Source: Gammaproteobacteria bacterium (GTDB lineage Bacteria > Pseudomonadota > Gammaproteobacteria > Eutrophobiales > Eutrophobiaceae). Taken from it: DNA of 64,000 nt. A program made the position numbers and the translations under genes. The stretch lies in the NCBI GenBank assembly GCA_963422205.2, contig CAXMWX010000009.1, positions 160,001 through 224,000 of the forward strand, read 5' to 3'. Below, in pieces: positions 261 through 22,018 of the stretch (positions are counted from its first letter, which is position 1; every line of letters starts with the position of its first letter). The notes beneath the pieces are model-generated. The model had not been told where the DNA came from, did not search any database, and saw only the letters and a program-made list of their open reading frames with translations.

Positions 261-382
261 GTTAGCCTCATACCAAACGCCGGGATAGCATTGTCTACAC
301 CGATACTGCGTTTGCCCGGAAGAAATCAAACATGTCCTGAATAACTCATGCGTGAATCCTCAAAGCGCGATAAGCAAAAATG

Positions 383-886
383 TCATAAATCTAAAATTTC
401 CTTAAAGTGGGCTGACTGCAACAATTCAGGGTTCATAGAGCTTGCCTTAGCCAGCGTTACTTCGTAACAGGCAAAGGTCAGCAGGGCCAGCAGTTTGGCG
501 AAATAATCGGTCTTCTCCCGCTCCATCATATAAAAAGTTGCAACCAGTGTAAGCAGGGACACGGCAATCAACACCACGACCTGTAGCGCTGTCGAAAACA
601 ATCCTCAGTAGCGATAAAACAGGAAGAACACGCTGATCGCCAGCGCCAGTCGCCAAGAAAAGACGCCATATTCATTCCCAGAGAGAATGGTTTTTCCTTG
701 TGACCGACATCGATATCTAAAGGCATCGGCGGCATACTCGGCGAGCAATCGCTGATGATGGAAATCAATGGCCGATGTTTGCGCCTCCGCCAACCCCACT
801 GCGCCTGCCGATTGCGACTCCGTCAGTTCCTCCTTAAATGCGGCAATCCGAAGGGGTTCAATGTTCCCAAGGCAGACGGATGGCAT
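383..886 (-). pseudogene. Fragmented DUF2157-like membrane protein
   Basis: Pieces in different frames join into one reading: HHQRLLAEYA / DIDVGHKEKPFSLGMNMASFLG / LALAISVFFLFYRY* / MFSTALQVVVLI...YFAKLLALLTFAC. It has frameshifts, an internal TGA and a truncated 3' end. Confidence 0.6.
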
Positions 887-900
887 CTACAGACCAGGGT

Positions 901-2331
901 TTATTTGATTAACGACTTGATTGTCACTGGCTTGACCGGGAAGCGGGCAGTAAAGGGGCCGATATCCTGCTCGCTCAAGGCGCCATGTTCACTGAGGATT
1001 TTTGTCATGTAATAGTGGCAATAACGTCCCTGACACAGCCCCATTCCGGTACGCGAAAATAATTTAGCAGCGCCTGCGTTGCTGATATGATGATGCTCCA
1101 CCAGCTTCTGTTTAAATTCACCCAATGTGATTTTTTCACATTTACATAATATAGATTCTTCGGTTGCCAGTTGTGACAGTAATTTTCCACCTGGATAGGA
1201 AAGGTATTTTAAGATGTTGGCGAATTGATTCAAATGCTGTAGACGCCTGTGGGTTTTTTTAAAGAGAGGCAAAGCGGCCTGTGAACCAGGTCTTCCCAGA
1301 TATTGAGCGATACCCAATCCCGCCAGCCTGCCTTCTGCGGCTGCGACTTCCGCTCCAGCGACCCCGGTTATCTCACCCGCCACATACACGCCAGCAACGC
1401 CAGTGCTCATCCATTCATCGTGTTTTATTACCCAGCCACCGCCTGCACTTGACCATGAGTAATCGGCGCCGTATTGGCGTGCCAGTTCAGAAGAGGCGAG
1501 AAAACCAAAACAAATACCAAGACGATCACATAAAATTTCTCGAACGGTATCTTTTTTAATATCGCCTGATCTGTCAATAGCACCGATACTGACGCTTGCT
1601 AATCTTGCTTTGCCATTTGCCTGTATCAACGTTTCGGAAAAACGAATCGGGATGCCGGCCTTTATCAGGCGAAGTAAAACGCCTGCAAGGTATAAAAATT
1701 TTCCGGCATGACGAATAAGCACGGAGGGTGATCTTAAAATAGCAAACACTTGAGAGAAGCGCTGGGCAAATATCATGCCCACCACCTCGCCACCCGCCTG
1801 CACGATCTGATCGGCGACGATAAGCTGTAAAGGGTGGGTGCCTGCAAATAAAAATCGTTCCCCCGGAATAAGCTGCTGGCTTTTTACCAGGGTTTGAATA
1901 CCCCCTGTCGCCATTACCCCGGGTAAATGACATCCTGGAAACACGATGGACATGTCATGACATCCCGGCGTAATCAGAAGTGATTTTGTTTGTATGTCTT
2001 GTATGCCCTTACGGTTACATGTCGTTATTTTGTGTGGATAGTTTGTTTCATTGTCATCGCTTTGCGTTATTCCCAGAACCGTTGTTTGTGTTAACCAATT
2101 TATTTTTTTATTTTCTGAAACCTTTTTCAGCAGACTTTTACCATTTTTATAGATGCGGGAAGACAGCCAGTTGTCGACTTTGAATGCATGTGGCGGTTGG
2201 CGATATATCTGGCCTCCCGGACTAGCTTGTTCATCAATGATCAGGATATCCAGATCATAATCGATGAGTTGTTCGGCCGCTGCCATTCCGGCCGGGCCTG
2301 CGCCAATAATGACAACTTCAGCCGTTCTCAT
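901..2331 (-). CDS. FAD/NAD(P)-binding oxidoreductase with C-terminal BFD-like [2Fe-2S] domain (HcnB/OoxA-type subunit)
   Basis: GAGPAG dinucleotide motif, VYVAGEITG, C-terminal CKCE...RTGMGLCQGRYC and ARFPVKPV. Confidence 0.9.
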   Translation of the reverse strand: MRTAEVVIIGAGPAGMAAAEQLIDYDLDILIIDEQASPGGQIYRQPPHAFKVDNWLSSRIYKNGKSLLKKVSENKKINWLTQTTVLGITQSDDNETNYPHKITTCNRKGIQDIQTKSLLITPGCHDMSIVFPGCHLPGVMATGGIQTLVKSQQLIPGERFLFAGTHPLQLIVADQIVQAGGEVVGMIFAQRFSQVFAILRSPSVLIRHAGKFLYLAGVLLRLIKAGIPIRFSETLIQANGKARLASVSIGAIDRSGDIKKDTVREILCDRLGICFGFLASSELARQYGADYSWSSAGGGWVIKHDEWMSTGVAGVYVAGEITGVAGAEVAAAEGRLAGLGIAQYLGRPGSQAALPLFKKTHRRLQHLNQFANILKYLSYPGGKLLSQLATEESILCKCEKITLGEFKQKLVEHHHISNAGAAKLFSRTGMGLCQGRYCHYYMTKILSEHGALSEQDIGPFTARFPVKPVTIKSLIK

Positions 2332-2650
2332 GTGAGTTATGTTTACTGTTTATCTGATGCCCGGTTTCAATAAGCATGTCCTGTTCCACTTCAGTCATGC
2401 AGGCACGCACCCAGGCTGGAGAGTCACTGCAATGCCTGCGTTTGACATAGACCAGACACTCAAAGCAAGTACCCATATTGCAGAAAGGCGCATGCCCCTG
2501 AGCATCATCGGTCTTATAGAAAACATGAATATCTTCAGCAAACAGCAGGGTAGCAACAGTCTCGCCAGCATAGGCGGAGACGGTCTCACCGTTAAGGATA
2601 AGTGTGAGAGCATCGGGGCGCTCTACATTCCTGGTCAGTCTTATTGCCAT
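2318..2650 (-). CDS. [2Fe-2S]-binding subunit (HcnA-type)
   Basis: GETVAT, FCNMGTCFECLV and RACM cysteine pattern; overlaps the downstream gene. Confidence 0.9.
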   Translation of the reverse strand: MAIRLTRNVERPDALTLILNGETVSAYAGETVATLLFAEDIHVFYKTDDAQGHAPFCNMGTCFECLVYVKRRHCSDSPAWVRACMTEVEQDMLIETGHQINSKHNSHENG

Positions 2651-2661
2651 GATAGGTTTGC

Positions 2662-3837
2662 CTATTGAAAACGACTCGCCGCATAAGGGGCGATTGGAAA
2701 AGAGGTTGAGCTGGTCAGAATAAGTTCGCTTATCAGGCGAGCATAAGTCGGGCCATAAGTAAAAGCCGAACCACCGGCAGCGATATAAAAGCCGGAGGCC
2801 TTATCTACCGCCCCTAAGATGGGTAACTGATCCGGTGCGAGTGCAGTCATGCCTGTCCAGGTTCTTATTAAGTGCAGGTCTCTTACAAATGGGACAATGC
2901 TCGCAGCAGTACGCAGATTCTCCTTTACAGTGTCCGTATGAATCAATGCCGGGCGTTCAGAATGCCATTTTCCATCTTGATGTTGCAGCTTTGCCAGCCA
3001 GCCGCCTCCTATCAGGACATTGCCGTCATTAACTTGTTTCATGGACAGTTTACGTCCGACATGTTGAATGAGATGATGAATGACTTTGGGTATTTTTTCA
3101 GTGACATTCATGATCAGACCAACGGGCAGTAGCGGCAGATCAACAGAAGCTAACAGGCCAACCTCATTAGCCCAAACCCCGGCGGCATTTAAAACCATCT
3201 CTGCGATAACAGCGTCGCCATTTTTGTTGATTTGATTATTGGTGAATTTGATCTGCCACCTCCCTTGTTTTTTATAGAGTCCCGTAACATTTTTATTGGT
3301 CAGAATTTCCACCTTGTTCGCCGCCGCGCCTCTGGCATAAGCGGGTGTTAAGAGACGCGGGTTACAATGACCTTCATGAGGACAAAACAGAGCCGCCTGT
3401 ACTTTGTCGCTGAGGTAGGGCGCAAGTTTATGGATATCCTTTCTCTCAAGCAGCTCTACGGTCAGTCCCTGGGCCTTCTCGATTGCAGATTTCTCTTCCA
3501 GCAGTCTCGTCTCATCGTCTGTTTCTGCGACCATAAAGCCGCCCTCCATGACCACTTCCAGATCGCAGTTCAATTCCTGCTCTATGTTCCGCCAATGGTC
3601 AATGGCAATCTGAGTCAGGGCAACATAATGTTCAAGCGCTTCGGCAAGTTCCTGCCTGTGTTTGACGAGACGTTGTTCCAGTTGGAAGTGCAGGGAACCG
3701 GCGTTTCGTCCAGACGCGCCTTCGTTTATCTGACCACGTTCAAGCAGAATAACATCAGCGCCCGATTGGGAAAGGTAGTAGGCTGATGCACAGCCGACTA
3801 ATCCCCCGCCAATGACTGCAACATCATATTTTTGCAT
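2662..3837 (-). CDS. FAD-dependent D-amino acid/opine dehydrogenase catalytic subunit (DAO family, HcnC/OoxB-type)
   Basis: GGGLVG, GASGRNAGSLH, IRTWTG, PDQLPILG, FTYGP. Confidence 0.9.
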   Translation of the reverse strand: MQKYDVAVIGGGLVGCASAYYLSQSGADVILLERGQINEGASGRNAGSLHFQLEQRLVKHRQELAEALEHYVALTQIAIDHWRNIEQELNCDLEVVMEGGFMVAETDDETRLLEEKSAIEKAQGLTVELLERKDIHKLAPYLSDKVQAALFCPHEGHCNPRLLTPAYARGAAANKVEILTNKNVTGLYKKQGRWQIKFTNNQINKNGDAVIAEMVLNAAGVWANEVGLLASVDLPLLPVGLIMNVTEKIPKVIHHLIQHVGRKLSMKQVNDGNVLIGGGWLAKLQHQDGKWHSERPALIHTDTVKENLRTAASIVPFVRDLHLIRTWTGMTALAPDQLPILGAVDKASGFYIAAGGSAFTYGPTYARLISELILTSSTSFPIAPYAASRFQ

Positions 3838-3838
3838 T

Positions 3839-4762
3839 CTACGCCTGGATTTTACCGAGTTCTATCAGTGTTGCCCTGATCTGTTGAACGCCCTCATCGC
3901 ATAACGGCAGTATTGGTGGCCTTGGATACCCCCCCGGCAGGCCCTGTTGATTTAAGGCTTCTTTAAAGATGGCCTGCGCTGAACCAAACTTGCCGGTGTA
4001 GTCTGCTTTGAACCAGGCCTGCATATAAGCCTGATCACGCTTACCCATTGATTTTGCTGTTTCGATATCATTCCTCCAGATGGCATTAAAAAACTCTGGA
4101 TGATCGCGGCCCAGAATGCCACCAGCGCCCATGGTACCGTCCGCGCTATGGTGTTGCACCAGCGTAATTCCTAACTCGTTCATCGGCACACCAAAGATAC
4201 GCACTTTATCTTTCAAGGCAAAAAATACGTCTAGGAAATGAGTCATATCCGCAGTAGAGTTTTTTATAGCGACAACCTTGTCCAATTCAGCAAGCCTTAA
4301 AAATAAACCAAGCGACATATCAACATTGGTACCCGGTGGCCAGTTATAAATACAGACAGGAAGAGCAGTAGCTGAGTTTATATCCTGGTAGTATTGAAAA
4401 ATTTCTTCTTCCGTGGGCATTATATATGGGGGAGGAGTCACCAGGACACCATCAAAACCGCTGCTCGCCGCAATAGCCGTATTTTCGATGACCTCATTCG
4501 CAGTATATGCGTTACAGCCAGCAATCAATGTCAGCTTTCCTTTTAACAACTTCCCGGCAAGCTCAAGCAGTTTGATCTTTTCCTCTTTTGTTAGACTAAA
4601 CCACTCGCCTTGTGTGCCAAGAATATTCACACCATGCATATTCTGTTCAGCCATCCAGTTCAGGAGATGTTTTGCAGCATCGATATCCAGGACGCCATCT
4701 TCAGTGAACGGTGTAGTAACAGCGGGAATGTAGCCTCGCCAGTTAACGGAATGTCTATCCAT
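3839..4762 (-). CDS. Dihydrodipicolinate synthase/NAL-family lyase or deaminase (not housekeeping DapA)
   Basis: PAVTTPF, GTQGE (variant of GTTGE), TPPPY, IYNWP, Schiff-base lysine in VAIKNS. Confidence 0.88.
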   Translation of the reverse strand: MDRHSVNWRGYIPAVTTPFTEDGVLDIDAAKHLLNWMAEQNMHGVNILGTQGEWFSLTKEEKIKLLELAGKLLKGKLTLIAGCNAYTANEVIENTAIAASSGFDGVLVTPPPYIMPTEEEIFQYYQDINSATALPVCIYNWPPGTNVDMSLGLFLRLAELDKVVAIKNSTADMTHFLDVFFALKDKVRIFGVPMNELGITLVQHHSADGTMGAGGILGRDHPEFFNAIWRNDIETAKSMGKRDQAYMQAWFKADYTGKFGSAQAIFKEALNQQGLPGGYPRPPILPLCDEGVQQIRATLIELGKIQA

Positions 4763-4866
4763 ACCAAGGTATCTCCAGTCGGCTGTTTTTATTTCTTTTG
4801 ATTTGAGATTTTAGAGAATGCTGATTATCCGCACGAAAGCCAGCAAGCTACAATTATTTGCTATCT

Positions 4867-4910
4867 GTTTCAATAACAATATATTATGATTTTCGTTGCA
4901 TTCTGTGCAA
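4867..4910 (-). promoter_or_regulatory. LysR operator and promoter 1 (lyase-dehydrogenase operon)
   Basis: Minus strand TTGCACAGAATGCAA (T-N11-A dyad), 17 nt, TGTTATTGAAAC; TTGAAA-17 nt-TAGCTT follows as a plausible -35/-10. Confidence 0.7.
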
Positions 4911-4949
4911 ATAGTAAAAACGCCAATCACAAATCTGTCTTATATAATA

Positions 4950-5864
4950 ATGCCAAGTGATACCCGCCTGCGCTATTTATATGAATCAGCCTGCCTTGGA
5001 ACGATGCGGGCCGCCAGTGAAAAACTGGACGTGGCGACATCCTCTATCAGCCGACAGATAGGGGCATTGGAAACAGAGTTAGGTCTTGCACTTATCGAAA
5101 AAGGTCGGCGCAGGATAAAATTAACAGAAGCGGGAGAGGCGGCATGTTCGTATTACAGAGAAAGAATCTCACAGGAAGAGGCCTTCCTGTCCAGGGTTGG
5201 AGAGCTTAAAAGCATACGCACGGGTAAAATTTTATTGGCGGTGGGAGAGGCCTTTGTAACACAACAGTTCAGTGACATGTTGCAGGCATTCATGCAGCAC
5301 TACACCGGCATGAAAGTGCAGGCAGTCGTCACCAATACAAACAGTGTCGTAGATCTGGTGCGTGAAGATGAGGCACACATGGGTTTGATCTTTGATGTAC
5401 CCAGAGATCCGAAGATTCGCGCCCGCCTTACTTTGCCGCAGCCGCTCAAGGTGATCGTCAACAAAAAGCATCCTTTTAGTCGCAAAAAGTCCACGACACT
5501 CTCGGCGCTGGCCGGAGAGAATATCGGCTTGCCGGAAGAGGATTATCGTATTCGCCAGCTTATTCATATTGCAGAGCGGGAAGAGGGCGTGTTTCTTGAG
5601 GCAGCGATGATCACAAACTCACTCGCCCTGATTACTGATTTCGTCAAGTCTGGCAGAGGGGTAAGCATTATGCCGGAGTTGGTGGTGCAACAGGAACTAA
5701 TCAACGGTGAGCTGAAGGCATTACCAACTGAAAGTAACACCTTAAACTCTACGCAAACCAGCCTGATCACCCGGATTGGCAGGCAATTACCCATCGGTGC
5801 CTACCGCTTATTATTAAGCATTGAGACCTATCTGAGATCTGTTATACAGACAAGTCTCCCCTGA
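4950..5864 (+). CDS. LysR-family transcriptional regulator
   Basis: N-terminal HTH (TMRAASEKLDVATSSISRQIGALETELG, LTEAG) and substrate-binding domain; ATG at 4950 preferred over TTG at 4896; divergent from the catabolic operon. Confidence 0.93.
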   Translation: MPSDTRLRYLYESACLGTMRAASEKLDVATSSISRQIGALETELGLALIEKGRRRIKLTEAGEAACSYYRERISQEEAFLSRVGELKSIRTGKILLAVGEAFVTQQFSDMLQAFMQHYTGMKVQAVVTNTNSVVDLVREDEAHMGLIFDVPRDPKIRARLTLPQPLKVIVNKKHPFSRKKSTTLSALAGENIGLPEEDYRIRQLIHIAEREEGVFLEAAMITNSLALITDFVKSGRGVSIMPELVVQQELINGELKALPTESNTLNSTQTSLITRIGRQLPIGAYRLLLSIETYLRSVIQTSLP

Positions 5865-5932
5865 GCCAGGGTCAAGCCCGGCCCCGACCGCTTTAAAATC
5901 CTGCATTACACGTCCTTACCTTCCGGTTTAAT

Positions 5933-5976
5933 TTGCCTGTAAAGCAACAAAATGTATCAATCACTGTCATTGAAAC
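5933..5976 (+). promoter_or_regulatory. LysR operator and promoter 2 (SnoaL-TBDR operon)
   Basis: TTGCCTGTAAAGCAA, 17 nt, TGTCATTGAAAC; same architecture as the sites at 4867-4910 and 14462-14505. Confidence 0.7.
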
Positions 5977-6101
5977 AATTATTCAATTTTAGTGAAATTC
6001 AATCCTGTGCAGAGTACCGGCTGGGGCATCGCTTTTCCCGTCAGCAGATAAAGACTTAGCGCACTGTGCTTTTTTATCGTCTGTATAACGGGGGGCATTG
6101 A

Positions 6102-6578
6102 GTGAAAAGAGCAATCAGGATCATGGTAATAGCGTCATTGTGTCAATTTGTCGGCACGGCTGTTGCTGCTGATGAGAACGACAATGTGCTGGTACACATG
6201 TTCGCCTGGTGGAACGCTGCAATAAAAGACTCGGACGGTTTTACGGAGCAGGCATTTCGCCGTTATTACACCGAGGATGCGACCATTGTAATTAATGGTG
6301 CTGAGCGTGTCAGCGGAATCAAAAACCTGGTTGAACACTTCAGAAAAATTCAGCAGCGAGTTGAGTCTGTCGAAATCGTGCTGCCTTTTGAAGAGGGTTT
6401 CCAGTCAGGCAATCGGATATTTACCTATCACAAAATCCGCTCCCGTGCTGACGGGCAGGACAGCCTGTCCCATGTTATGGGCTATGCCGTGATTGAGAAC
6501 GGAAAAATAGCCCTGGTTGATTTTCTTAGCTATGAGGATCCTAAGGCTGATGAAGTAAAGGCCGGGAATGAGCAGTGA
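6102..6578 (+). CDS. Secreted SnoaL/NTF2-like protein
   Basis: Signal peptide (MKRAIR...AVAA); NTF2-like pattern RRYYTEDATIVING...ENGKIA. Confidence 0.7.
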   Translation: MKRAIRIMVIASLCQFVGTAVAADENDNVLVHMFAWWNAAIKDSDGFTEQAFRRYYTEDATIVINGAERVSGIKNLVEHFRKIQQRVESVEIVLPFEEGFQSGNRIFTYHKIRSRADGQDSLSHVMGYAVIENGKIALVDFLSYEDPKADEVKAGNEQ

Positions 6579-6628
6579 GTCATCATCATGTTAGAAATTG
6601 ATAGAGCCGCCTATGAGGAGTGAGAGTT

Positions 6629-8842
6629 ATGAAAAGTAATAGCAAAATCATCACGTACTTTATGTTTGCGAGTTTGATTTCGAGTTTGAGCCTGACGCAC
6701 AAGGCCATTGCACAGGATGGCCTGATGCTGGAAGAGGTGGTCGTGACTGCACAGCGCCGAGAGCAATCGCTACAGAATGTGCCGATCAGTATCAGTGCGT
6801 TCACTACAGAAGCGATCGATAAATTCATGTTCAATGATGTGGGTGATTATATTATCCGTTCACCCAATGCCAGTTTCACAACAGATGGTGCAAAATCACG
6901 GCGTCGACTCAGTATTCGCGGGGTTACTGACTTCTTAGCTATCAACAATCCACTCAAACCTTCCACCTTCGGGTTTTATGTGGACGACTTCAGTGTCTCT
7001 GCCAGCACCTCTAATCCGCCGATCTTTGATATAGAACGTATTGAAATACTGCGCGGCCCGCAGGCCACCTACTTTGGGCAGAATGCGCTGGGGGGCGGGA
7101 TCAGCGTGACGTCTAAAAAAGCAGATGCGACCAGGTATGCAGGGGAAATTATGTTCGACTACTCAAACTTTGATACCCGGGATGTTGAGGTGATGGGGAA
7201 TGTGCCAGTCATCAAGGATGTGTTAGCTGTGCGGGCAAATATAAAATATTCACAGTCCGATGGAAACATAAAAAATATCAACCCCGCCTGTAACTGTGAT
7301 GGCAATGCCTCAAAATATCAGTATGGCAAGCTGGCCATACGCTACACGCCAACGCATGATTTAACGGTAGATGTGGTTGCCAGCATTATGGATGAGGAGG
7401 TGGGTATGCGCGAAGGTGTGCCAACCGGTGTCTTCTCAACCTTTGCCGGCGGTACGTTATTTGCCAACCTGCCGGACACCGATGGCGATGGTGCGGCTGA
7501 TCCAACGCCGGACGGAGTCGGCTTTTATCCCGATAACAGGACACGAGTCAACAGCGATTTCCCGCAGGATGTTGGCACCGCCTATCGTAATATTATTGGC
7601 CGGATCGATTATGATATTGCCGACCTTAGAATAACCAGTATCACCGGCACCATAAGCTCTGATTTTAGCCTGGCCGGAGATATTGACGGCAGCAGCATTG
7701 ATGCCTTCAGAGAGTTCAGAAATATTGAGCGCCAGAGTTTTAGCACAGAGCTTCGAATCAAGAATACGGATGCCGGGCGCTGGCAGTGGAATATCGGGGC
7801 AATCTATGCCGATAATGATGCGACCATCTGGAATCGAACCTTTGCCAGGCCGGGCAGCAGGTTTCCTCCCCAACTCATCGACAGTCAGGACGACAGTGCG
7901 AGTGCGGATAGCTGGGCCTTGTTCGGGGAGGGTAAATATGCAATAACTGACCGCTTGACCGCCTCCATCGGTGGTCGTTACAGTGAAGAAATTATCAACA
8001 CAGATATTGCCGGTTTTTCCGGTGGCTTTGTGCAGGTATTGTCTGCGAAAAATAAATTCAAGGATTTCTCGCCTCACTTCTCGGCTAACTATCAGTTCAC
8101 CGATGAGATAAATGCTTATGCCACGATCTCCAGGGGCTTCAAGTCGGGCGGGACACAGATCAGCCCTCTCCCCGGGACGGATGCGGATTTTTATGATCCG
8201 GAAATCATGTGGAATTATGAGCTGGGTGTAAAAGGCGATTTCTTTAATGACAGGTTGCGTGTGAACGCCGCCCTGTTTTATATGCAATGGTCTGATTTAC
8301 AGACGAACTTTCAGCAGTCCGGTATCAATGCTGATGGCGAATTCGAGTTGTTTGCCGGCACTGACAATGCAGAATCAGCAACCTCAAAGGGGGTGGAATT
8401 AGTTGCTACCGCCCTGCTGATTGATAACCTGATTGTCAATTTCAATGTGGGTTATCTGAACGCACAGTTTGATAAATTCGTCACCTTTATTGATGGCATG
8501 AATAGAACACTGGATGGGACATCAATACCCCTGTCGCCAAAATGGACTGTCTCTGCCGATGCGGAATACACGTTTCCTGTCATGGATGGGTATGATGGTT
8601 TTGCCCGTGTGGAATACAGTTATCGACATCAGACAAAAACCCTGATTGCTGGCCTGATACAAGAGGGTTTTCCCTGGCGAGAGCATAAGGATTTCACCCT
8701 GGTGGCTTATGCGGAAAACCTGTTTGATGAGAAGTACTATACCAATGCCTATCAGAAGGCGTTTGCCGGTGGGCTTTTTGCCGAGCCATCATTCAGAAGT
8801 TATGGTGTGCGGATAAACTATACGTTCGACAAGCCACTATAA
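6629..8842 (+). CDS. TonB-dependent outer membrane receptor
   Basis: Signal peptide, TonB box LEEVVVTAQRRE, plug motif IERIEILRGPQATYFG, GFKSGG, NYELGVK, ENLFDEKYY, RSYGVRINYTF. Confidence 0.93.
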   Translation: MKSNSKIITYFMFASLISSLSLTHKAIAQDGLMLEEVVVTAQRREQSLQNVPISISAFTTEAIDKFMFNDVGDYIIRSPNASFTTDGAKSRRRLSIRGVTDFLAINNPLKPSTFGFYVDDFSVSASTSNPPIFDIERIEILRGPQATYFGQNALGGGISVTSKKADATRYAGEIMFDYSNFDTRDVEVMGNVPVIKDVLAVRANIKYSQSDGNIKNINPACNCDGNASKYQYGKLAIRYTPTHDLTVDVVASIMDEEVGMREGVPTGVFSTFAGGTLFANLPDTDGDGAADPTPDGVGFYPDNRTRVNSDFPQDVGTAYRNIIGRIDYDIADLRITSITGTISSDFSLAGDIDGSSIDAFREFRNIERQSFSTELRIKNTDAGRWQWNIGAIYADNDATIWNRTFARPGSRFPPQLIDSQDDSASADSWALFGEGKYAITDRLTASIGGRYSEEIINTDIAGFSGGFVQVLSAKNKFKDFSPHFSANYQFTDEINAYATISRGFKSGGTQISPLPGTDADFYDPEIMWNYELGVKGDFFNDRLRVNAALFYMQWSDLQTNFQQSGINADGEFELFAGTDNAESATSKGVELVATALLIDNLIVNFNVGYLNAQFDKFVTFIDGMNRTLDGTSIPLSPKWTVSADAEYTFPVMDGYDGFARVEYSYRHQTKTLIAGLIQEGFPWREHKDFTLVAYAENLFDEKYYTNAYQKAFAGGLFAEPSFRSYGVRINYTFDKPL

Positions 8843-8854
8843 CTGTTTCCACAG

Positions 8855-8907
8855 ACGACCCTCCTGCATCATCTCCTCTTAATGTAGATACAGAAGGGTC
8901 GTTTTTT
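8855..8907 (+). terminator. Stem-loop with T-tract downstream of the receptor gene
   Basis: ACGACCCT...AGGGTCGT stem, extended by CTG/CAG and ATC/GAT pairs, followed by a T run. Confidence 0.6.
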
Positions 8908-8914
8908 ATTTGCA

Positions 8915-10762
8915 ATGAGAGCTGGCTCGCTCATGTTCAACAAAGGTCATACATATCCTGCCCCTGGTGTATTTTTAGCCGTCCTTTTATTCATCCCGTC
9001 TCTGGTTCACGCAGGTGAATTCAAACCTGATGAGACTGTGTGTCTGGCTGATTTTTTGCAGGGCATATACGACAGAACGTTGTCGCAGGATCCGGAATTA
9101 GCCTTTAAATCAGGGCAGAGAAAACACTTTGCTCAATGGCATGATCGATCAATCAAACAAAGCAATGAAGCGCTGCGACAAAACTGGCTGGACCTTTATA
9201 CATTGCATAATGACTTCGATTATTCAAGGTTAAATGCTGAAGGGAAATTAAACTATCGCGCCTTTGAAGCGGATCTGAAACTGCGGATTGAACGTCATGC
9301 CTGGCGTTACCATCTCAGCCCGGTCAATCAGATCGTCGGCATACACCTGGAAATACCGGGCTTGTTAACCGGGTCATTTAAAATAAATACAGCAGCAGAT
9401 GCCCGTGCCTATATTGCTGCCATGAAAACAGTGGACGTGCCCATTGATCAATTTATCGAACTTTTTAAGGACCGGGAAGGCAGGGGATTTCTATTGGCAG
9501 AAAGTGTCGTACCACGATTAGTTCAGGCAGCAAAATCAGTCATATCAGGTACGCTGCAAGGCGAGGATGACAATAATATTTTGTTAGCGGATTTCAAACG
9601 AAAATTAACAGATGTTGATGCAGATGATAAAACAATACACAGTCTTCTGACGGATTTTAAGGTAACGATGCAAAATGATTTTATGCCTGCCTATCAGCGT
9701 TTAATTGATACGTTTGAACAACACGGCAGGATAAAACACATCAGCGATGATGGTCTCTGGCGCTATCCTGATGGCGCAGAATTTTATCAGTTTTTATTAA
9801 GGCAATATACAACAACGGCTATCAGTGCTGACCAAATCCATCCCCTGGGCTTAAAAGAAGTCGCACGTATTCATAAGGAAATGAACCGGATCAAACAGGA
9901 GCTTGGGTTTAAAGGTGACTTAAAAGCATTTTTTTCTTACCTGAAGACCGCCCCTGAATTCTATTATCCAAATACACGTCAAGGGCGTGAACAATATCTA
10001 AAACGGGCCCATGACATCATTGAGAAGGCTAAAAGTCGTATTCACGATATCCTCCCAATGGATTTGGCACATGAACTTGTGCCGAGACGAATAGAAGCCT
10101 ATCGAGAGCAGTCCGCACCAGCCGGTTTCTATGCCGCGGGCACAGCGGACGGCAGCGTACCGGGGACGGTTTTTCTTGGGATGTATAACATGGCAAGTAA
10201 CGCCGTCTATGATCTCAATGCACTGCTCGCCCATGAAGGTATTCCCGGCCACCATTTACAATTATCGGTGATGCAATCACAGCAACACATCCCCGACATT
10301 CGCAAATATTATATCTGGTGGTCGAACACCGCTTTTACCGAAGGGTGGGCCTTGTATGCTGAATATCTTGCAGAGGAGATGGGCCTGTATCCTGATCCCT
10401 ATACGGAATTTGGCAGGCTTGCAGGAGAGTTATGGCGTGCCTGTCGTTTAGTTGTCGATAGCGGCCTGCATGCTGAAAAATGGAGTCGTCAACAGGCCAT
10501 TGATTACTTAAATAAGAACACCGCCAGTTCGGTGGAGCATAATATACGTGCTGTTGACAGGTATCTGGCTGTGCCCGGTCAGGCAACGGCATTTAAGATT
10601 GGGATGATAAAAATCCTTCAATTAAGAGAAAAGGCACAGGCCGTTTTAGGCGATGATTTTGATATTCGTGAATTCCACTATGCTGTGCTGAAAAATGGCC
10701 CGCTTCCTTTATCACTTGTTGCAGAAGAAGTGGATGCGTGGGTGTTGAGTAAACAAAAATAG
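8915..10762 (+). CDS. DUF885-family secreted putative metallopeptidase
   Basis: HEGIPGHHLQ, AFTEGWALYAE, LWRACRLVVDSGLH, RYLAVPGQATAFKIG; signal peptide ending VHA. Confidence 0.9.
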   Translation: MRAGSLMFNKGHTYPAPGVFLAVLLFIPSLVHAGEFKPDETVCLADFLQGIYDRTLSQDPELAFKSGQRKHFAQWHDRSIKQSNEALRQNWLDLYTLHNDFDYSRLNAEGKLNYRAFEADLKLRIERHAWRYHLSPVNQIVGIHLEIPGLLTGSFKINTAADARAYIAAMKTVDVPIDQFIELFKDREGRGFLLAESVVPRLVQAAKSVISGTLQGEDDNNILLADFKRKLTDVDADDKTIHSLLTDFKVTMQNDFMPAYQRLIDTFEQHGRIKHISDDGLWRYPDGAEFYQFLLRQYTTTAISADQIHPLGLKEVARIHKEMNRIKQELGFKGDLKAFFSYLKTAPEFYYPNTRQGREQYLKRAHDIIEKAKSRIHDILPMDLAHELVPRRIEAYREQSAPAGFYAAGTADGSVPGTVFLGMYNMASNAVYDLNALLAHEGIPGHHLQLSVMQSQQHIPDIRKYYIWWSNTAFTEGWALYAEYLAEEMGLYPDPYTEFGRLAGELWRACRLVVDSGLHAEKWSRQQAIDYLNKNTASSVEHNIRAVDRYLAVPGQATAFKIGMIKILQLREKAQAVLGDDFDIREFHYAVLKNGPLPLSLVAEEVDAWVLSKQK

Positions 10763-10804
10763 CCATTATCGATGTAATCATTTTTGAAATAAGAGGAAAT
10801 TGAC

Positions 10805-12100
10805 ATGAATAAAACCTGCATACCCATCAGCCTGATTGTCCTGCTGCTGATGACCGTATCTGCTCAAGCCACAGAGCCTGCGAAGATCACGGCCATTGTT
10901 GGCGGCACAATCGTTGACCTTGATGGGAAATCTCCGCTTGAGAATGCGGTTATTCTTATCAGCGGTGAGCGGATTTCAGCAACAGGCAGTGCTGATGAGA
11001 TAACAGTCCCTGCCGATGCTGATATCATCGCTGCCAAAAGCACATGGCTGATCCCCGGGCTGATGAATATGCACGTGCATCTGGGGTTGAAATTGCCTGG
11101 AAAAATGCAGGCGGAACTGGCCAATGAAACCGAAGGCGAGTTGGTGCTGCGTATGGCTGATAACGCCCGCAGGACATTACTGGCGGGTATTACAACGATA
11201 CGCCTGCCCGGTGATGACAGGTGGGGAGACCTGGCCCTGGATAAGGCAATCAGGAAAGGACAGGCAATTGGCCCGCGTATTTTCAGCGCAGGAGAAGCGC
11301 TCGCCATAACGGCAGGACATGGCGCAGAAAAAGGTCAGGTTTACCATGACGGCCCTGATGAGCTGGTAAAAGCGGCACGTCAACAGATCAGTGCTGGTGC
11401 TACGTGGGTCAAGATTTTGATTTCAGGCGGTATCGCTACGGATGGTGGCGATATTGCCGAAGCATTAATGACACCGGAAGAAATCAGCGCGGTTATTGAT
11501 GCTGCCCATCGTTTTGGCATAAAGGTTGCCGCGCATTCCGGCTCTCCCGAGGCCACCAATACAGCAATCGATGCCGGTATCGACAGCATTGAACATGGTT
11601 ATTTTCTTGATCGTAAAACCTTACGCCGGATGAGGAAAGAAGGCACCTGGTTGGTGCCGACTATTTTAGTCAGCCAGCCGGCTTTAGCTCCCTTCTTCGA
11701 AGAAATTGGCACACCTAAATGGTATATGACACGTCGCGAATCAGTCGGCGAGCACCACTGGAGGGCCTTACAGATGGCCATAGAAGAGGGGGTGAGTATC
11801 GCTTTGGGGACGGATCAGTTACCCGCAGCGCCGACTGATGGAACCACCGCCACTGTACGTGAAGCTGAGTATTATGTTGAAGCAGGTATGACGCCCCTGC
11901 AGGCACTTCGCTCAGCCACTATAGAAACGGCAAGATTACTGGACGCCGAAAAAGACCTCGGTTCACTGGCAGCAGGCAAGTATGCAGATATTTTGGCTTT
12001 TGCGAGCGATCCGGTGAAAGACATCAAGGCCCTGCGTAATATTCTGCTCATCATGAAAGGCGGCACCGTGTACAGAAATGAATTAACAACGGGCAACTAA
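10805..12100 (+). CDS. Secreted metal-dependent amidohydrolase (Xaa-Pro dipeptidase-like subgroup)
   Basis: PGLMNMHVH, WVKILISGG, VAAH, SIEHG, GTD, GSLAAGKYAD; signal peptide. Confidence 0.9.
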   Translation: MNKTCIPISLIVLLLMTVSAQATEPAKITAIVGGTIVDLDGKSPLENAVILISGERISATGSADEITVPADADIIAAKSTWLIPGLMNMHVHLGLKLPGKMQAELANETEGELVLRMADNARRTLLAGITTIRLPGDDRWGDLALDKAIRKGQAIGPRIFSAGEALAITAGHGAEKGQVYHDGPDELVKAARQQISAGATWVKILISGGIATDGGDIAEALMTPEEISAVIDAAHRFGIKVAAHSGSPEATNTAIDAGIDSIEHGYFLDRKTLRRMRKEGTWLVPTILVSQPALAPFFEEIGTPKWYMTRRESVGEHHWRALQMAIEEGVSIALGTDQLPAAPTDGTTATVREAEYYVEAGMTPLQALRSATIETARLLDAEKDLGSLAAGKYADILAFASDPVKDIKALRNILLIMKGGTVYRNELTTGN

Positions 12101-12141
12101 AGGGGGAGAGGTTCAAAGGCTGATGTTTGCAGGCAGAATAA

Positions 12142-12546
12142 TCAGCCTAACTCGGCAGTGACCTCAATTTCGATCAGAAACTCTGGCAGCGCCAGGCTTT
12201 GCACACCTATCCAGGTATTTGCAGCAGGTGTCACATCGCCATAAAATTCACCCAGCGCCATGCCAACAGGTTCCAGGTATTCAGGTTTATGGCCAACCAC
12301 GTAAGTGTGCATACGCACGATATCAGCCACACTGGCACCGGCTTCAGCAAGCACGGTCTTAATATTATTGAGCGCCTGGCGGGCCTGGGCGCCGATATCA
12401 TCAACACCAATCACATTGTAATCTTTGTCCCAGGCAACCTGACCGGCACAGTAGATGGTTGATTTACCATCGGCCTTTATCGCCTGAGAAAAACCATATT
12501 GAATACTTCCATACATGGATTTCGGATTGATCGCTTCACGTCTCAT
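12142..12546 (-). CDS. Rid (YjgF/YER057c/UK114) family protein
   Basis: FSQA, IYCAGQV, QARQALNNIKTVLAEAG, LIEIEVTA. Confidence 0.9.
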   Translation of the reverse strand: MRREAINPKSMYGSIQYGFSQAIKADGKSTIYCAGQVAWDKDYNVIGVDDIGAQARQALNNIKTVLAEAGASVADIVRMHTYVVGHKPEYLEPVGMALGEFYGDVTPAANTWIGVQSLALPEFLIEIEVTAELG

Positions 12547-12559
12547 TTTAATTCTCCGT

Positions 12560-13051
12560 TCATATATACTCTACCAGTTCCAGTTGATTGCCAAAAGGAT
12601 CCAGCACATACCAGGAGTGTGATGCCGGACAGGGGCCATTGTCCATAGTGATAGGGCCACTCATTGCCTTGCAACCGTTTTCTTCAAGGAAAGTAATCGC
12701 CAGTTGGATATTATCAACTTCTATACACAGGTGGCGGCTGCCGATGTCACAGTTTCTCGGTGGAGTTTGATTTGTATCACCGGGTCTTTCATATTGGAAT
12801 AACTCCATCCCAAAGTTATCGCCCAGGCGTAACATGGCAATTTCCAGGCGGGCGCCCTTGACATTGATATGGGCCTCGCTCCAGTCCCGACCATCCTCCT
12901 CAGCAGGCATGTCAGCAGAATCAAACGGCCCCATGCGGTATGCCAATTCGGCATCCATCACGTCGGTATAAAATTGAATAGCCGCATCCAGATTGGCTAC
13001 TGTGAGTGAAACATGGTCGGGTCGTTTGAATACAGGTTTTTTTAAGCTCAT
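12560..13051 (-). CDS. VOC/glyoxalase-family metalloprotein
   Basis: DHVSLTV, ELFQY, RHLCIEV, DPFGNQLEL (H-E-H-E metal ligands). Confidence 0.9.
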   Translation of the reverse strand: MSLKKPVFKRPDHVSLTVANLDAAIQFYTDVMDAELAYRMGPFDSADMPAEEDGRDWSEAHINVKGARLEIAMLRLGDNFGMELFQYERPGDTNQTPPRNCDIGSRHLCIEVDNIQLAITFLEENGCKAMSGPITMDNGPCPASHSWYVLDPFGNQLELVEYI

Positions 13052-13076
13052 GGGTTATACCTCGTTTTATCAGGCG

Positions 13077-14411
13077 TCAGTCCGCAATATAATCCTGCAC
13101 GTTTTCCGTTGCCAAGACCAGCGACAAGACAAGTCCAGCCAGGATAATCAGATTACGCCACCACTCAGCCCGGTGATGTTGTACGACACTGGTCTGATTC
13201 AACATATAAAGAACGATGATAAACACCAGCGGGATCACAATCACATTCACCCCCATCAGCAGCACCACCTTCAATAAGGCCGGAAAACTCCAGAAGGGTG
13301 TCAGCAGGGCGGGAATCATCAGAAAAGATGCCAGCAGATAATGGTACGGTTTGTTGTCCGCAGAAAAACGCCAGGGCTGCTTAAACATATCCAGACAAAA
13401 ATACGTGCAAAACTGTGCGGCCACGATCATGGTCGTCATTGCCGCCATGATAACGCCAAGAGAAAAAATCAGCGGGCCAATACCAGCGATGCTCCCAGGG
13501 AAGGCATGCACCAGCACGTTACTCGCTTCATGTACCGTGTCTATCTGTGCATGGTGTTGCAGTGGATACAATGCATAGCCTCCGGCGATGATGATAAAGC
13601 TGGCATAACAGCCAAAGATGAGCCCCAGATTCAACAGGGACTTATGGAAATCCTGTTTTAACGTGCTCGCATCCGCCTGTGCATCAGTAGAGAGATAGGG
13701 CATACCCAGCAAGGCAGCGGGGGCTAAGGCACTGCCGACAATCGCAATCATGGATGTGTTGGCCAGACGCCAGCCGTCCGTCCCCGGGATCGGCAAATCC
13801 GCAGGAATACTGGGCATGAACCCCTTGATAATATCCGCTATTTCGCTGAAGCCACGCAGGGCAACAATAAAGAAGCAGGCAAACATCAGGACCATGAGTA
13901 GGCTCATGGCCTTTTGCATACGCTCGTAGCCCTGGGATAATATCAGCCAGAGTATGCCGCCGGCACAGACCAGGGACAGCAGCACCTCAGCCCACAGATA
14001 CGCCTGAATAGACTGCGCTGCTGCATTGGCTTGTGGCGGGTAAAAACCAAATAGAGACAAAACTGAGGATGTCATCACCGACATCTGTCCCATGATAATC
14101 AGCAGGTGTACCGGAATATTCACAGCAAGCAGCAGCCAGGCGATGCCGGGATGCACCTGCTGGCAGATCAGGGAGAACATGCCATGTTCGTGATTAAGCG
14201 CACCAATGCGAGATGAACTATCTACGGCGACCACGAAGACCGGCAGCATAATCAGCATCACCCACAGCAGTTCATAACGAAACCAGGCCCCGGCGAGGAT
14301 GAAAGAGGCGACTGCGCCTGCGCCCATAGTACCAGCAGCCATGACAGCCGTCGGCCCAATGACACTTTTAAACAGGTTAATGAGCCAGTTCATTGGTTTT
14401 AAGCTAAGCAA
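13077..14411 (-). CDS. Nramp-related (APC-fold) membrane transporter
   Basis: About 11 hydrophobic segments; GPTAVMAAGTMGAG...AGAWFRYELLWV resembles the Nramp/MntH N-terminus; true start may be the ATG at 14393. Confidence 0.75.
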   Translation of the reverse strand: MLSLKPMNWLINLFKSVIGPTAVMAAGTMGAGAVASFILAGAWFRYELLWVMLIMLPVFVVAVDSSSRIGALNHEHGMFSLICQQVHPGIAWLLLAVNIPVHLLIIMGQMSVMTSSVLSLFGFYPPQANAAAQSIQAYLWAEVLLSLVCAGGILWLILSQGYERMQKAMSLLMVLMFACFFIVALRGFSEIADIIKGFMPSIPADLPIPGTDGWRLANTSMIAIVGSALAPAALLGMPYLSTDAQADASTLKQDFHKSLLNLGLIFGCYASFIIIAGGYALYPLQHHAQIDTVHEASNVLVHAFPGSIAGIGPLIFSLGVIMAAMTTMIVAAQFCTYFCLDMFKQPWRFSADNKPYHYLLASFLMIPALLTPFWSFPALLKVVLLMGVNVIVIPLVFIIVLYMLNQTSVVQHHRAEWWRNLIILAGLVLSLVLATENVQDYIAD

Positions 14412-14461
14412 AAGTTAGCGTGTTACAGAATTATACGCCCAGAGTAGCCCTGCCATAATTC

Positions 14462-14505
14462 GATTCAATAACATCAAAGAAACATTTTTGTTGCTTATAT
14501 AACAA
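14462..14505 (-). promoter_or_regulatory. LysR operator and promoter 3 (transporter-VOC-Rid operon)
   Basis: Minus strand TTGTTATATAAGCAA, 17 nt, TGTTATTGAATC; extended dyad TTTGTTG...CAACAAA at 14487-14509. Confidence 0.7.
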
Positions 14506-14760
14506 CAAAGCAGCCGGTCATCGTATTAGCAGGCGGGTATCGCTGATCCCATCGGGCAAGACTGCCTTCAGGTGTCGCTGTGCGTGGTAGAGGTAAAAAG
14601 TTTTGACATCCCGGAACCGTTATGAGCTGAAGGGGATAAGCCTCGCCATACTTCAAAAAATGACTGCTCAAAGAGTAATTTTGCAAAGCTATTATTTTGA
14701 ATATAATCAAATATATTTTATTGTTTTAATCTTTAAACACTTGCGTTTACTATCTGTTGC

Positions 14761-15147
14761 TCACAGTTTATGGTTCATTGAAGAGACGTCCAGGTGATAC
14801 TTAACTTGTTTTTCTTCAGGTATCAGATTTTTCTCCTTTAACAGGGTTTTATCAAAGTCAATAGTACATACAGGTTGAGGGATATTGAAAAATTTCGATA
14901 GACTGTTCCAATCCTTGTTTCTTATGGTTATTGCCTCATTCAAATAAAAACTCACCCAGCTATTTCCTATTTTATGGTTAGGTTTAGTGGCTTCAAGTTT
15001 CGCTTCTGAAATAGCTATATAAGACTCATCTATCTCAAACCCAATATATTTTCTCCCCAGCCTTTTTGCCGAAATTGCCGTTGTGCCAGTGCCTGAAAAA
15101 GGATCCAATACCCTATCATTTTCCTCTGTAGAAAGAAGTATCAACAC
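14761..15147 (-). pseudogene. C-terminal remnant of an N4/N6 DNA methyltransferase
   Basis: VLDPFSGTGTT...GRKYIGFEID (SAM-binding motif I); the N-terminal catalytic part is absent. Confidence 0.8.
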
Positions 15148-15532
15148 TTTTTATAAGTTGTAAAATTGCATCATCAGACCACTCCTGAGCATTTTCAGGT
15201 ACGGTTTTATCGCACCACAAGTCTTTGTAGACCGATCTGTTTAATTCAGGAATGTCGACGATTCGGATGATGGTGATTAAGCGCTTTAGATATTCATTTT
15301 AAAAGCCTGATAGCGCCAGTAATGCCCTCAGCCCATTTTCTTTTTCAGCAATAAGATCTTCAAATATCTTTTTTCTTAATCCCTCTGTTTCAACTCTATT
15401 TTTAACATTCAGCAGGGTTTCCTTTAAGGCATTTATATACCCCTCATAGTCCTCTTCAAACTTGGGATTGAAAAAGTAAAAAGTGTTTTTATTTATTACA
15501 GTGTTAAATTTGCTTTCTATTGATTGCATCAT
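15148..15532 (-). pseudogene. N-terminal remnant of a probable restriction endonuclease
   Basis: Lies between two MTase genes; reading continues past an in-frame TAA at 15299-15301 (SGF*NEYLKRLITIIRIVDIPEL...WSDDAILQLIK), then runs into the MTase remnant. Confidence 0.55.
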
Positions 15533-16777: not shown

Positions 16778-16913
16778 TATTATATGAAAAACCCGGTGAC
16801 CGGTAAACGCCAGCCAAATCTCGCACAAGGGACGTCCATCGCTTCCCTGTCTGCCACGCTTGGCGGCACAGGCAGATGACGGGCGGGACAGGAATGAAAT
16901 TATCTTTGTATGA

Positions 16914-20754: not shown

Positions 20755-20792
20755 CTTATCAATGCAGCATTTACCTGTGGAGTAAGCACGCT

Positions 20793-21956: not shown

Positions 21957-22018
21957 TCGTGGCAGGGGCTGTTGCTGTTAAAAAACCGAGATAAAGAGCA
22001 AATGGGGTTTGCATTGTA

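Follow-up and report, generated by a model that had tools for sequence, protein, structure and literature searches.

The DNA analyzed here, referred to as the window, is a stretch of 64,000 nucleotides from a gammaproteobacterium of the family Eutrophobiaceae (contig CAXMWX010000009.1, positions 160,001 to 224,000), and between its positions 901 and 14411 it contains twelve genes that form three operons around a single gene for a LysR-type regulator. This work suggests that the block is probably a horizontally acquired, self-regulated nutrient-scavenging island, which would serve the uptake and breakdown of an amino-acid-like compound, referred to here as X. Gene content, linkage, operator, insertion and family features of the block were directly established. 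The three operons belong together for several reasons: their genes co-occur in other genomes, a common operator precedes each of them, and they were inserted as a single block.

Genes were called from the list of open reading frames (ORFs) of the window and then assigned by Pfam and NCBIfam profile searches, and this bore out the arrangement that had been put forward in an original prediction for this DNA, namely twelve genes in three operons around one LysR gene. The genes, the operator sites and the island are as follows:

261-16913, inserted island between xthA (which ends at 260) and a DUF4426 gene (16914-17390), by synteny with relatives
901-2331, minus strand, operon 1, alpha subunit with a flavin adenine dinucleotide (FAD)/NAD fold and a BFD-like 2Fe-2S domain (Pfam Pyr_redox_2, Fer2_BFD and SO_alpha_A3)
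2318-2650, minus strand, operon 1, gamma (2Fe-2S) subunit (Pfam Fer2_4, E 4e-18)
2662-3837, minus strand, operon 1, beta (catalytic, DAO-type FAD) subunit (Pfam DAO, E 2e-65)
3839-4762, minus strand, operon 1, DHDPS-family gene, the first gene of the operon (Pfam DHDPS, E 3e-43)
4869-4899, minus strand, operator 1, in the divergent promoter gap between the LysR and DHDPS-family genes, GCAACGAA-N13-TGTTATTGAA
4950-5864, plus strand, LysR-type regulator, divergent from operon 1 (Pfam HTH_1 and LysR_substrate)
5944-5974, plus strand, operator 2, 128 nt upstream of operon 2 (pattern match)
6102-6578, plus strand, operon 2, secreted NTF2-like (SnoaL-like) protein of 158 amino acids (structure model and Foldseek)
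6620-8842, plus strand, operon 2, TonB-dependent outer-membrane receptor (Pfam Plug and TonB_dep_Rec_b-barrel)
8915-10762, plus strand, operon 2, periplasmic DUF885 protein (Pfam DUF885, E 1e-149)
10805-12100, plus strand, operon 2, periplasmic amidohydrolase-superfamily protein (PDB matches 2qs8 and 3mtw)
12142-12546, minus strand, operon 3, Rid-family protein (PDB 5v4f, E 2e-37)
12560-13051, minus strand, operon 3, VOC (glyoxalase-fold) protein (Pfam Glyoxalase)
13077-14411, minus strand, operon 3, Nramp-fold inner-membrane carrier (Pfam Nramp, only 76 bits)
14464-14494, minus strand, operator 3, 53 nt upstream of operon 3 (pattern match)

Conservation, operator and insertion of the block

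A search with the DHDPS-family protein, restricted to one genome per species, returned 19 loci from Halieaceae, Exilibacterium, Pseudomaricurvus, Woeseia and other Gammaproteobacteria. A metagenome scan with the alignment of the clade to which this protein belongs gave 199 relatives, from which 79 loci were kept, so that 98 related loci were compared in total, 46 of them at least 8 kb long. The beta, gamma and alpha genes were all found beside the DHDPS gene in 16 of the 19 loci, and in one of the other three (L021) the contig ends 97 nt after the DHDPS gene. The remaining genes were found among the 19 loci at frequencies of 17 (LysR), 13 (amidohydrolase), 13 (Nramp-fold), 11 (DUF885), 11 (VOC), 10 (Rid) and 3 (158-aa gene), and the receptor was present in 13, with one additional match of 26% identity. 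Among the 46 longer loci, the DHDPS gene was accompanied by beta in 40, gamma in 38, alpha in 37, LysR in 34, VOC in 29 and Rid in 27, and by the amidohydrolase in 20, the receptor in 17, the Nramp-fold gene in 13 and DUF885 in 12; the 158-aa SnoaL-like gene, with 5 of the 46, is accessory. Furthermore, beta lies directly downstream of the DHDPS gene in 40 of the 64 loci that have room for it. The operons that the original prediction had joined into one module do co-occur elsewhere, and across the 98 related loci the order of their genes is widely shuffled.

The true conserved unit is LysR, DHDPS, beta/gamma/alpha, VOC and Rid. On two Novosphingobium megaplasmids these genes are contiguous in the order LysR-DHDPS-beta-gamma-alpha-VOC-Rid, and in metagenome loci the same six genes that follow LysR there occur in other orders, for example VOC-Rid-DHDPS-beta-gamma-alpha. 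The genes for uptake and hydrolysis are swapped between lineages. For instance, the inner-membrane carrier is of the Nramp fold in 13 of the 46 loci, an SNF protein in 8 loci, an MFS protein in 7 loci and an APC permease in Woeseia, and Novosphingobium and four metagenome loci have a 484-aa carrier without a family name. A cluster of other TonB-dependent receptors is found within the gene cluster or at most 2.5 kb from it in 24 loci, and more distant DUF885 copies are found in 12 loci. The hydrolases of the marine loci are DUF885, the amidohydrolase and sometimes DPP-IV, and the sphingomonad-type loci carry a GH3 enzyme and an esterase within the same operons. The gene contexts in Bradyrhizobium and Embleya contributed little to this comparison.

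Several observations were made on individual variants. The carrier of about 484 aa, which replaces the Nramp-fold protein (L026:13304-14758, plus strand; L024:12110-13687, minus strand; L098:7630-9405), has 10 to 13 hydrophobic segments and gave no Pfam match at E 0.01; its N-terminal motif may resemble that of sodium:solute symporters. The GH3 glycosidase of the sphingomonad-type variants has a PA14 domain and lies near the core in L073-L075, L101, L024 and L026; in L073-L075 it is located inside the cluster, between Rid and beta, and the gene is often accompanied by a BD-FAE/Abhydrolase_3 esterase and by an operator site before the adjacent receptor. In the Woeseia locus L007, two DHDPS-clade paralogues (7843-8775 and 10001-10918) are accompanied by the genes for LysR, VOC and Rid as well as by those for an APC permease and a hydrolase of the S33 type. 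Genome G643 carries two diverged copies of the whole cluster (L011 and L016) about 840 kb apart on one contig, one with DPP-IV and an M1 peptidase and the other with a distant DUF885 copy. In addition, 12 related loci (L013:14569-15300, L017:248-973, L113:5874-6671 and nine more) encode a protein of about 243 aa that looks secreted or resembles a lipoprotein; it gave no Pfam match and has no counterpart in the window.

Each of the three operons is preceded by one site of a 31-bp operator pattern, GCAACRAA-N13-TGTYATTGAA, which has three matches in the window against 0.01 expected. A pattern derived from the other loci alone retrieved the same three sites in the window, and none in 100 shuffles. 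The whole genome of 2.99 Mb contains these three sites and one match with two mismatches, with no mismatch-free site elsewhere, and a control pattern gave 1 match. When a relaxed form of the operator was searched for in the 98 related loci, 69 sites were found compared with 2 for the reversed pattern, and nearly all of the 69 were located in gaps flanking cluster genes. Most of them were found in recognizable promoter gaps, namely in the LysR/DHDPS gap, upstream of the receptor or 158-aa operon, and before extra receptors that follow alpha. The footprint is kept at the same place in 11 orthologous LysR/DHDPS gaps and in many metagenome loci, and equivalents of operator 2 are found upstream of the operons for TonB-dependent receptors and SnoaL-like proteins in L004, L005, L008, L010, L011 and L013-L017. 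The features of a LysR-type regulon, a regulator divergent from a target operon and a predicted operator common to the targets, are thus present, and the LysR protein would presumably be the factor that binds the shared operator. The presence of one operator before all three operons predicts that they are co-induced. The likely start of the LysR gene is the ATG at 4950 rather than the called start at 4896, because the helix-turn-helix domain begins at residue 24 and the operator covers position 4896. In operon 1, the ends of neighbouring genes abut or overlap. A generic scan of the window for promoters and terminators was uninformative, with 38 promoter-like sites against 27.7 expected.

The insertion became apparent from the comparison with relatives. 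The genes xthA and DUF4426 were adjacent in three of the five relatives searched, G416 of the same genus and G420 and G410 of the same family, in which the gap between them is 6-160 nt, compared with 16.65 kb here. The left flank has the order radC, coaBC, algC-like, slmA, pyrE and xthA, and the right flank has the DUF4426 gene, yggT, proC and yggS, followed by pilT-like genes. No flanking direct repeat of at least 12 nt was found at the borders of the island, and no tRNA gene was found in the window. When other genomes were sampled, 400 from the phylum yielded no orthologue of the DHDPS protein and 125 from the order yielded two, and in the tree the copy of the window is placed among copies from Cellvibrionaceae and Halieaceae. 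As a marker, this enzyme is represented by the 199 relatives mentioned above, which come from one metagenome collection, and by 818 protein clusters that match at E 1e-20 or better. This abundance together with a patchy presence among genomes suggests a traded trait for a specific but widespread compound.

Other features lie in the island or close to it. The DNA that separates the cluster from the DUF4426 gene includes a stretch with a G+C content of 33-42%, in which the minus strand carries two pieces of a single N6/N4 DNA methyltransferase gene; the piece at 14761-15147 matches positions 174-220 of the Pfam profile and the piece at 15504-16379 matches positions 1-110. The island seems to have carried this gene as a second cargo that is now broken. 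At the left junction, which is 640 nt long, an ORF of 93 aa (605-886, minus strand) has no family match and may be a remnant or no gene at all. Outside the island, three consecutive genes for T2SSE-family ATPases (pilT/pilU-like, 19720-23077) follow the yggS-proC-yggT-DUF4426 block.

Enzymes, carrier and periplasmic hydrolases

The beta-gamma-alpha tandem fits, by its genes and motifs, the heterotrimeric flavin/Fe-S amine dehydrogenases of the LhpBEF/OdhABC/HcnABC type, a class defined biochemically by alpha4beta4gamma4 complexes that contain FAD, FMN and 2Fe-2S and by dye-linked activity. The R..W of the Arg-x-Trp motif in beta and the four cysteines of gamma (C-x4-C-x2-C...C) are invariant in 21 of 21 sequences, and CxC...CQGRyC of alpha is kept in 20 sequences. 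Watanabe et al. (PMC4575208) list Arg-x-Trp, for flavin mononucleotide (FMN), and cysteine motifs for the LhpBEF/OdhABC group; the cysteine spacing found here differs from the published one (18 versus x11-12 for the last gamma cysteine, and 34 versus x15-20 for the alpha pairs). The best PDB match of alpha is 1y56_A, from the L-proline dehydrogenase of P. horikoshii (E 6e-11), followed by the sarcosine oxidase alpha subunit, and 1y56_B, the beta subunit of the same L-proline dehydrogenase, is nearly the best PDB match of beta (E 1.5e-23). This archaeal PDH1 (PDB 1y56) is therefore among the best solved matches of both subunits, with low sequence similarity, but its gamma-like part is fused to alpha according to the legend of Fig. 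6 in PMC4575208, whereas a separate gamma gene is present here.

The DHDPS protein fits the DHDPS/N-acetylneuraminate lyase superfamily of class I aldolases by its lysine, its tyrosine and a GxxGE motif, and all 24 of the sequences compared have K167, Y139 and GT.GEW. These are presumably the catalytic residues, that is, the Schiff-base lysine, the tyrosine and GxxGE. The protein scored under every NCBIfam equivalog cut-off. Its identification as a true DapA was rejected because it reached only 140 bits with TIGR00674, for which the cut-off is 206, and has YNWPPGT at the position of the DapA arginine that, we assume, binds aspartate semialdehyde; the genome has another DapA-like gene, with GTTGES. 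In a tree from which two duplicate rows had been removed beforehand, 26 cluster-linked DHDPS proteins formed a clade with 100/100 support and a long stem; two LhpC candidates linked to an epimerase, a homologue from Azospirillum and the DapA of the genome itself fell outside it. The protein is 28% identical to the products of two epimerase-adjacent DHDPS genes, which as references are defined by context only, and the branches in the tree are long; five epimerase loci were fetched for this purpose, and four of the five have no adjacent DHDPS gene. As judged from the tree, the protein is a member of a new clade of the DHDPS family. The source names of 120 close relatives were all generic, atlas entries gave no more than family names, and the automatic name of one atlas cluster, 'putative 4-hydroxy-2-oxoglutarate aldolase', is an unconfirmed lead.

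The PDB matches of the VOC protein are weak, the best being 3ey7, annotated as 'biphenyl-2,3-diol dioxygenase III-related' (E 6e-7 over half of the protein), and its His/Glu positions are conserved in 15 sequences in a pattern that cannot tell a dioxygenase from an isomerase. The Rid protein has its best PDB match in 5v4f (E 2e-37) and scored 49 bits with TIGR00004, against a cut-off of 106. All four cluster Rids examined have Asn at the site that holds the active-site arginine (Arg105 of RidA) in the genome's own RidA, and a role as a classical imine deaminase was rejected for the Rid protein because this catalytic arginine is missing. Its features fit the description of the arginine-less Rid5/6 proteins in PMC4433059, and no activity is known for Rid subfamilies that lack the arginine (PMC4433059 and PMC7221256).

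Signal-peptide-like N-termini, judged by eye from the translations, are present in the receptor, the DUF885 protein, the amidohydrolase and the 158-aa protein, and the six core proteins lack them. This fits the layout that had been proposed originally, with import through the outer membrane and hydrolysis in the periplasm followed by transport into the cell and catabolism; the parts of that layout that did not come out as expected are the Nramp-fold protein, which lacks a metal site, and the Rid protein, which lacks the arginine for imine hydrolysis. The Nramp-fold protein belongs to its fold family but reached 20.6 bits with the MntH model, against a cut-off of 430, and an alignment to 8ont places GAGA at the DPSN of the reference, which contains the metal-binding Asp/Asn of the first helix. 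A metal transporter was rejected because these residues are missing. The best NCBIfam match of the receptor is a siderophore-receptor subfamily (E 1e-40, below the cut-off). The 158-aa protein had been called SnoaL from the beginning; it has no Pfam match, but an AlphaFold model of it, of medium confidence (mean predicted local distance difference test score, pLDDT, 64), was matched by Foldseek to NTF2-like, SnoaL and limonene-epoxide-hydrolase folds.

The motifs HE..PGHH and EGW...E of the DUF885 protein, which include H440, E441, H446 and E476, are unchanged in all 10 sequences compared. Its model (pLDDT 85.6) was matched by Foldseek to DUF885 structures first and then only to M3, M2 and M32 peptidases, at low template modeling (TM) scores of about 0.3, and DUF885 has been placed in the gluzincin clan MA (PMC12572635). 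The motifs and the model suggest that it is a probable zinc oligopeptidase; no characterization of DUF885 was found in the literature searched. The amidohydrolase matches 2qs8 (Sgx9355e, E 6e-60, the best PDB match) and 3mtw (Cc2672, E 6e-52), both over the full length, and scored 285 with its nearest NCBIfam equivalog, against a cut-off of 500. Its mHvH, K, AHSG, EHg and GtD motifs, which we take to hold the metal ligands, are conserved in 15 sequences. A signal-peptide-like N-terminus is found in 11 of 12 orthologues, the twelfth (L061) being truncated. The protein thus resembles the carboxypeptidases Sgx9355e and Cc2672 in family and in conserved metal-ligand motifs. It has been reported that Sgx9355e is an Xaa-hydrophobic dipeptidase and Cc2672 an Arg/Lys carboxypeptidase, and that the C-terminal residue sets the specificity (PMC11342369).

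Proposed route, identity of X and alternative explanations

In the route that we favor, the TonB-dependent receptor would import short peptides or other amide conjugates, from which the periplasmic DUF885 oligopeptidase-like protein and the amidohydrolase carboxypeptidase would free one amino-acid-like compound, X. The Nramp-fold carrier, having lost its metal site, would move X into the cell, where the beta/gamma/alpha flavin/Fe-S dehydrogenase would oxidize its C-N bond. The DHDPS enzyme of the new clade would then act through its Schiff-base lysine on the 2-imino or 2-oxo acid, probably releasing pyruvate, and the VOC metalloprotein and the arginine-less Rid might handle the remaining fragment or reactive intermediates. 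Finally, LysR would sense X or a product of it and activate the three operons through the shared operator. Taken as a whole, with all of these steps, we consider this explanation fairly probable; from the family features and the layout we infer the reactions, the direction of transport and the identity of X, and likewise the completeness of the route and the order of its steps.

As to the identity of X, our leading but tentative guess is an amino acid of the proline-like (imino) type that carries a hydroxyl group, for example 4-hydroxyproline, and that would be used with no need for an epimerase. Several hints point to a proline-like compound: in L016 and L017 a DPP-IV gene separates VOC from Rid (the DPP-IV blast cluster spans 3 loci), a gene for a cyclophilin-type peptidyl-prolyl isomerase directly follows alpha in three Haliea loci (L020:14001-14516, minus strand, L018 and L019), S33-type hydrolases are encoded in L003 and L007 (Woeseiaceae), and chains of the P. 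horikoshii L-proline dehydrogenase are the best PDB match of alpha and nearly the best of beta. To our knowledge, the pairing of a DHDPS enzyme with a dehydrogenase of the beta/gamma/alpha type has been described only for hydroxyproline. The variants with GH3 and an esterase suggest that X carries, in addition, a group open to glycosylation or esterification, and a hydroxylated imino acid fits both the proline-like hints and these variants. A more specific version, which we regard as rather unlikely, is that the six-gene core encodes an undescribed route for a hydroxylated imino acid (e.g. 4-hydroxyproline) without an epimerase and without an aldehyde dehydrogenase. Here beta/gamma/alpha would oxidize the L-form directly to a cyclic 2-imine, the new DHDPS clade would cleave the opened ring to pyruvate and a two-carbon amino-aldehyde, and the VOC metalloenzyme and the arginine-less Rid would convert the amino-aldehyde to a harmless product and ammonia.

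Several points weigh against the route that we favor. In the sphingomonad-type variants, a GH3 glycosidase and an esterase are carried in the regulon instead of peptidases, and therefore X must occur as a glycoside or ester too and the peptide story alone is insufficient. The nearest solved relative of the amidohydrolase cleaves Xaa-hydrophobic dipeptides, not Xaa-Pro (PMC11342369). For arginine-less Rid subfamilies no activity is known (PMC4433059), and the roles proposed here for VOC and Rid are conjectural. The Woeseia locus L007 has no beta/gamma/alpha genes within the 12.5 kb examined, and a Pro_racemase-family gene is found elsewhere in the carrier genome G643 and in the Embleya record. 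Finally, the operator pattern was first taken from the window itself, a circularity from which the scan with the pattern of the other loci and the footprint in related loci are free.

It is improbable, in our estimate, that the cluster is a mere variant of the known bacterial L-hydroxyproline pathway, although it shares several features with the cluster for that pathway, which consists of the LhpA epimerase, the LhpBEF D-hydroxyproline dehydrogenase, the LhpC deaminase and the LhpD/G aldehyde dehydrogenase: both have a tandem beta/gamma/alpha dehydrogenase, an adjoining DHDPS-family enzyme, and a transcription factor and uptake genes nearby, and the subunit types and their order beta-gamma-alpha agree with LhpBEF as given in PMC4575208. 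A similar likeness is found with the collagen-utilization cluster of Colwellia, also a marine gammaproteobacterium, in which a TonB receptor and a transporter are joined with peptidases and with the enzymes of imino-acid catabolism, here those of the canonical pathway (PMC7883544). However, the M9 collagenase, PepQ, epimerase, homomeric D-amino-acid dehydrogenase and aldehyde dehydrogenase of that canonical route, as listed in PMC7883544, are not found in the cluster of the window. A search for a Pro_racemase-family epimerase gave no match in the genome of the window (98% complete) and none over the cut-off in any of five other carriers. No aldehyde dehydrogenase gene was found in any of about 46 loci examined. 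The genome has four Aldedh genes, of the HpaE, methylmalonate-semialdehyde, succinic-semialdehyde-like and PaaZ types, and none of the four is a 2,5-dioxopentanoate (alpha-ketoglutarate semialdehyde) dehydrogenase by the models used, the best scores being 376 and 356 bits, where the cut-offs are 770 and 750. The lack of this enzyme and of an aldehyde dehydrogenase in the loci favors a cleavage that releases pyruvate. In addition, the DHDPS protein, with its 28% identity to the epimerase-linked LhpC candidates (which are candidates by context), falls in a separate clade with 100/100 support, and VOC and the arginine-less Rid, both core genes here, have no role in the hydroxyproline pathway. The cluster further differs from the Lhp cluster in its LysR regulator and in having a receptor and periplasmic peptidases under the same operator. 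Judged by these gene comparisons (no epimerase, no 2,5-dioxopentanoate dehydrogenase and a separate DHDPS clade), it is not the canonical hydroxyproline pathway.

Proline itself was also considered. The genome of the window (98% complete) has no Pro_dh/PutA match, and the absence of proline dehydrogenase is unusual for a gammaproteobacterium. The possibility that the cluster substitutes for this enzyme was rejected because all five of the other carriers have PutA, which also makes proline unlikely as the substrate.

A somewhat more doubtful alternative is that X is a secondary amine resembling the opines. It would be either an N-carboxyalkyl amino acid, of which octopine, strombine and alanopine are examples, or a metal chelator of the opine type; after import by the receptor, the dehydrogenase, acting as a flavin-containing opine dehydrogenase, would split it into an amino acid and a keto acid. 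The dehydrogenase type includes the nopaline/octopine dehydrogenases OdhABC, and the OdhABC/NoxAB/OoxAB enzymes agree with the proteins encoded here in the subunit set, the order B-C-A, Arg-x-Trp and two 2Fe-2S motifs (PMC4575208); beta shares about 35% identity with its best homologue on an Agrobacterium plasmid. The siderophore-receptor subfamily that best matches the receptor (E 1e-40, below the cut-off) speaks for this reading, and a linear imine product would need hydrolysis, with which a Rid-like protein might help, but the Rid encoded here has no arginine. Furthermore, opine clusters have binding-protein transporters, which are absent from all loci examined, and need no lyase, since the cleavage of an opine already gives central metabolites. 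Here, in contrast, the DHDPS-clade enzyme is the tightest partner of the dehydrogenase (beta directly downstream in 40 of 64 loci), and the two or three periplasmic peptidases that feed the system would be superfluous.

We give an equally low probability to a hydroxylated aromatic amino acid, similar to 3,4-dihydroxyphenylalanine (DOPA) or tyrosine, that would be freed from peptides, glycosides or esters. In that case VOC would cleave the ring as a small dioxygenase, and the role of the DHDPS protein would be that of a hydratase-aldolase or of a lyase acting on a dipicolinate-like cyclized product. This would agree with the nearest relatives of the amidohydrolase, which act on C-terminal hydrophobic or aromatic residues and on ochratoxin (PMC11342369), with the GH3 beta-glucosidase-type enzyme and the BD-FAE/Abhydrolase_3 esterase in the regulon of soil variants, and with a related Rid of another bacterium that was tied to aromatic amino-acid metabolism (PMC7221256). 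The 'biphenyl-2,3-diol dioxygenase III-related' protein that is the best PDB match of VOC points in the same direction, but this match is weak (E 6e-7 over half of the protein) and the His/Glu pattern is not diagnostic of a dioxygenase. According to PMC4575208, dehydrogenases of this type are known to act on secondary amines or on glycine, and DPP-IV and cyclophilin point elsewhere. That the three operons are unrelated neighbours brought together by chance, as the absence of parts from many related loci might suggest (the receptor, Nramp-fold and DUF885 genes are present in 17, 13 and 12 of the 46), is very improbable, since the shared operator occurs at the three promoters only, the linkage is kept despite rearrangement and the block was inserted as a single piece.

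The cluster therefore maps one-to-one onto none of the characterized hydroxyproline, opine and hydrogen cyanide systems, and no description of this gene combination was found in the literature searched, which did not extend to subscription journals and supplements; in both respects the original prediction, which had not recognized the combination as a described pathway, holds. The cluster represents an orphan pathway that is directly testable, since its regulon is defined, its operator has been predicted and carriers are available in culture, among them Exilibacterium tricleocarpae, Parahaliea mediterranea, Luminiphilus syltensis NOR5-1B, Pseudomaricurvus alkylphenolicus, Novosphingobium humi and N. 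resinovorum. Its solution would give functions for DUF885, for arginine-less Rid proteins and for metal-free Nramp-fold carriers, and would add a new branch to the DHDPS family. If the undescribed route for a hydroxylated imino acid were true, it would provide the first physiological role for the Rid5/6 subfamily and for DUF885 as a periplasmic oligopeptidase. It is possible that the island represents a missing route for the turnover of peptide-bound, modified amino acids in the sea and in soil.

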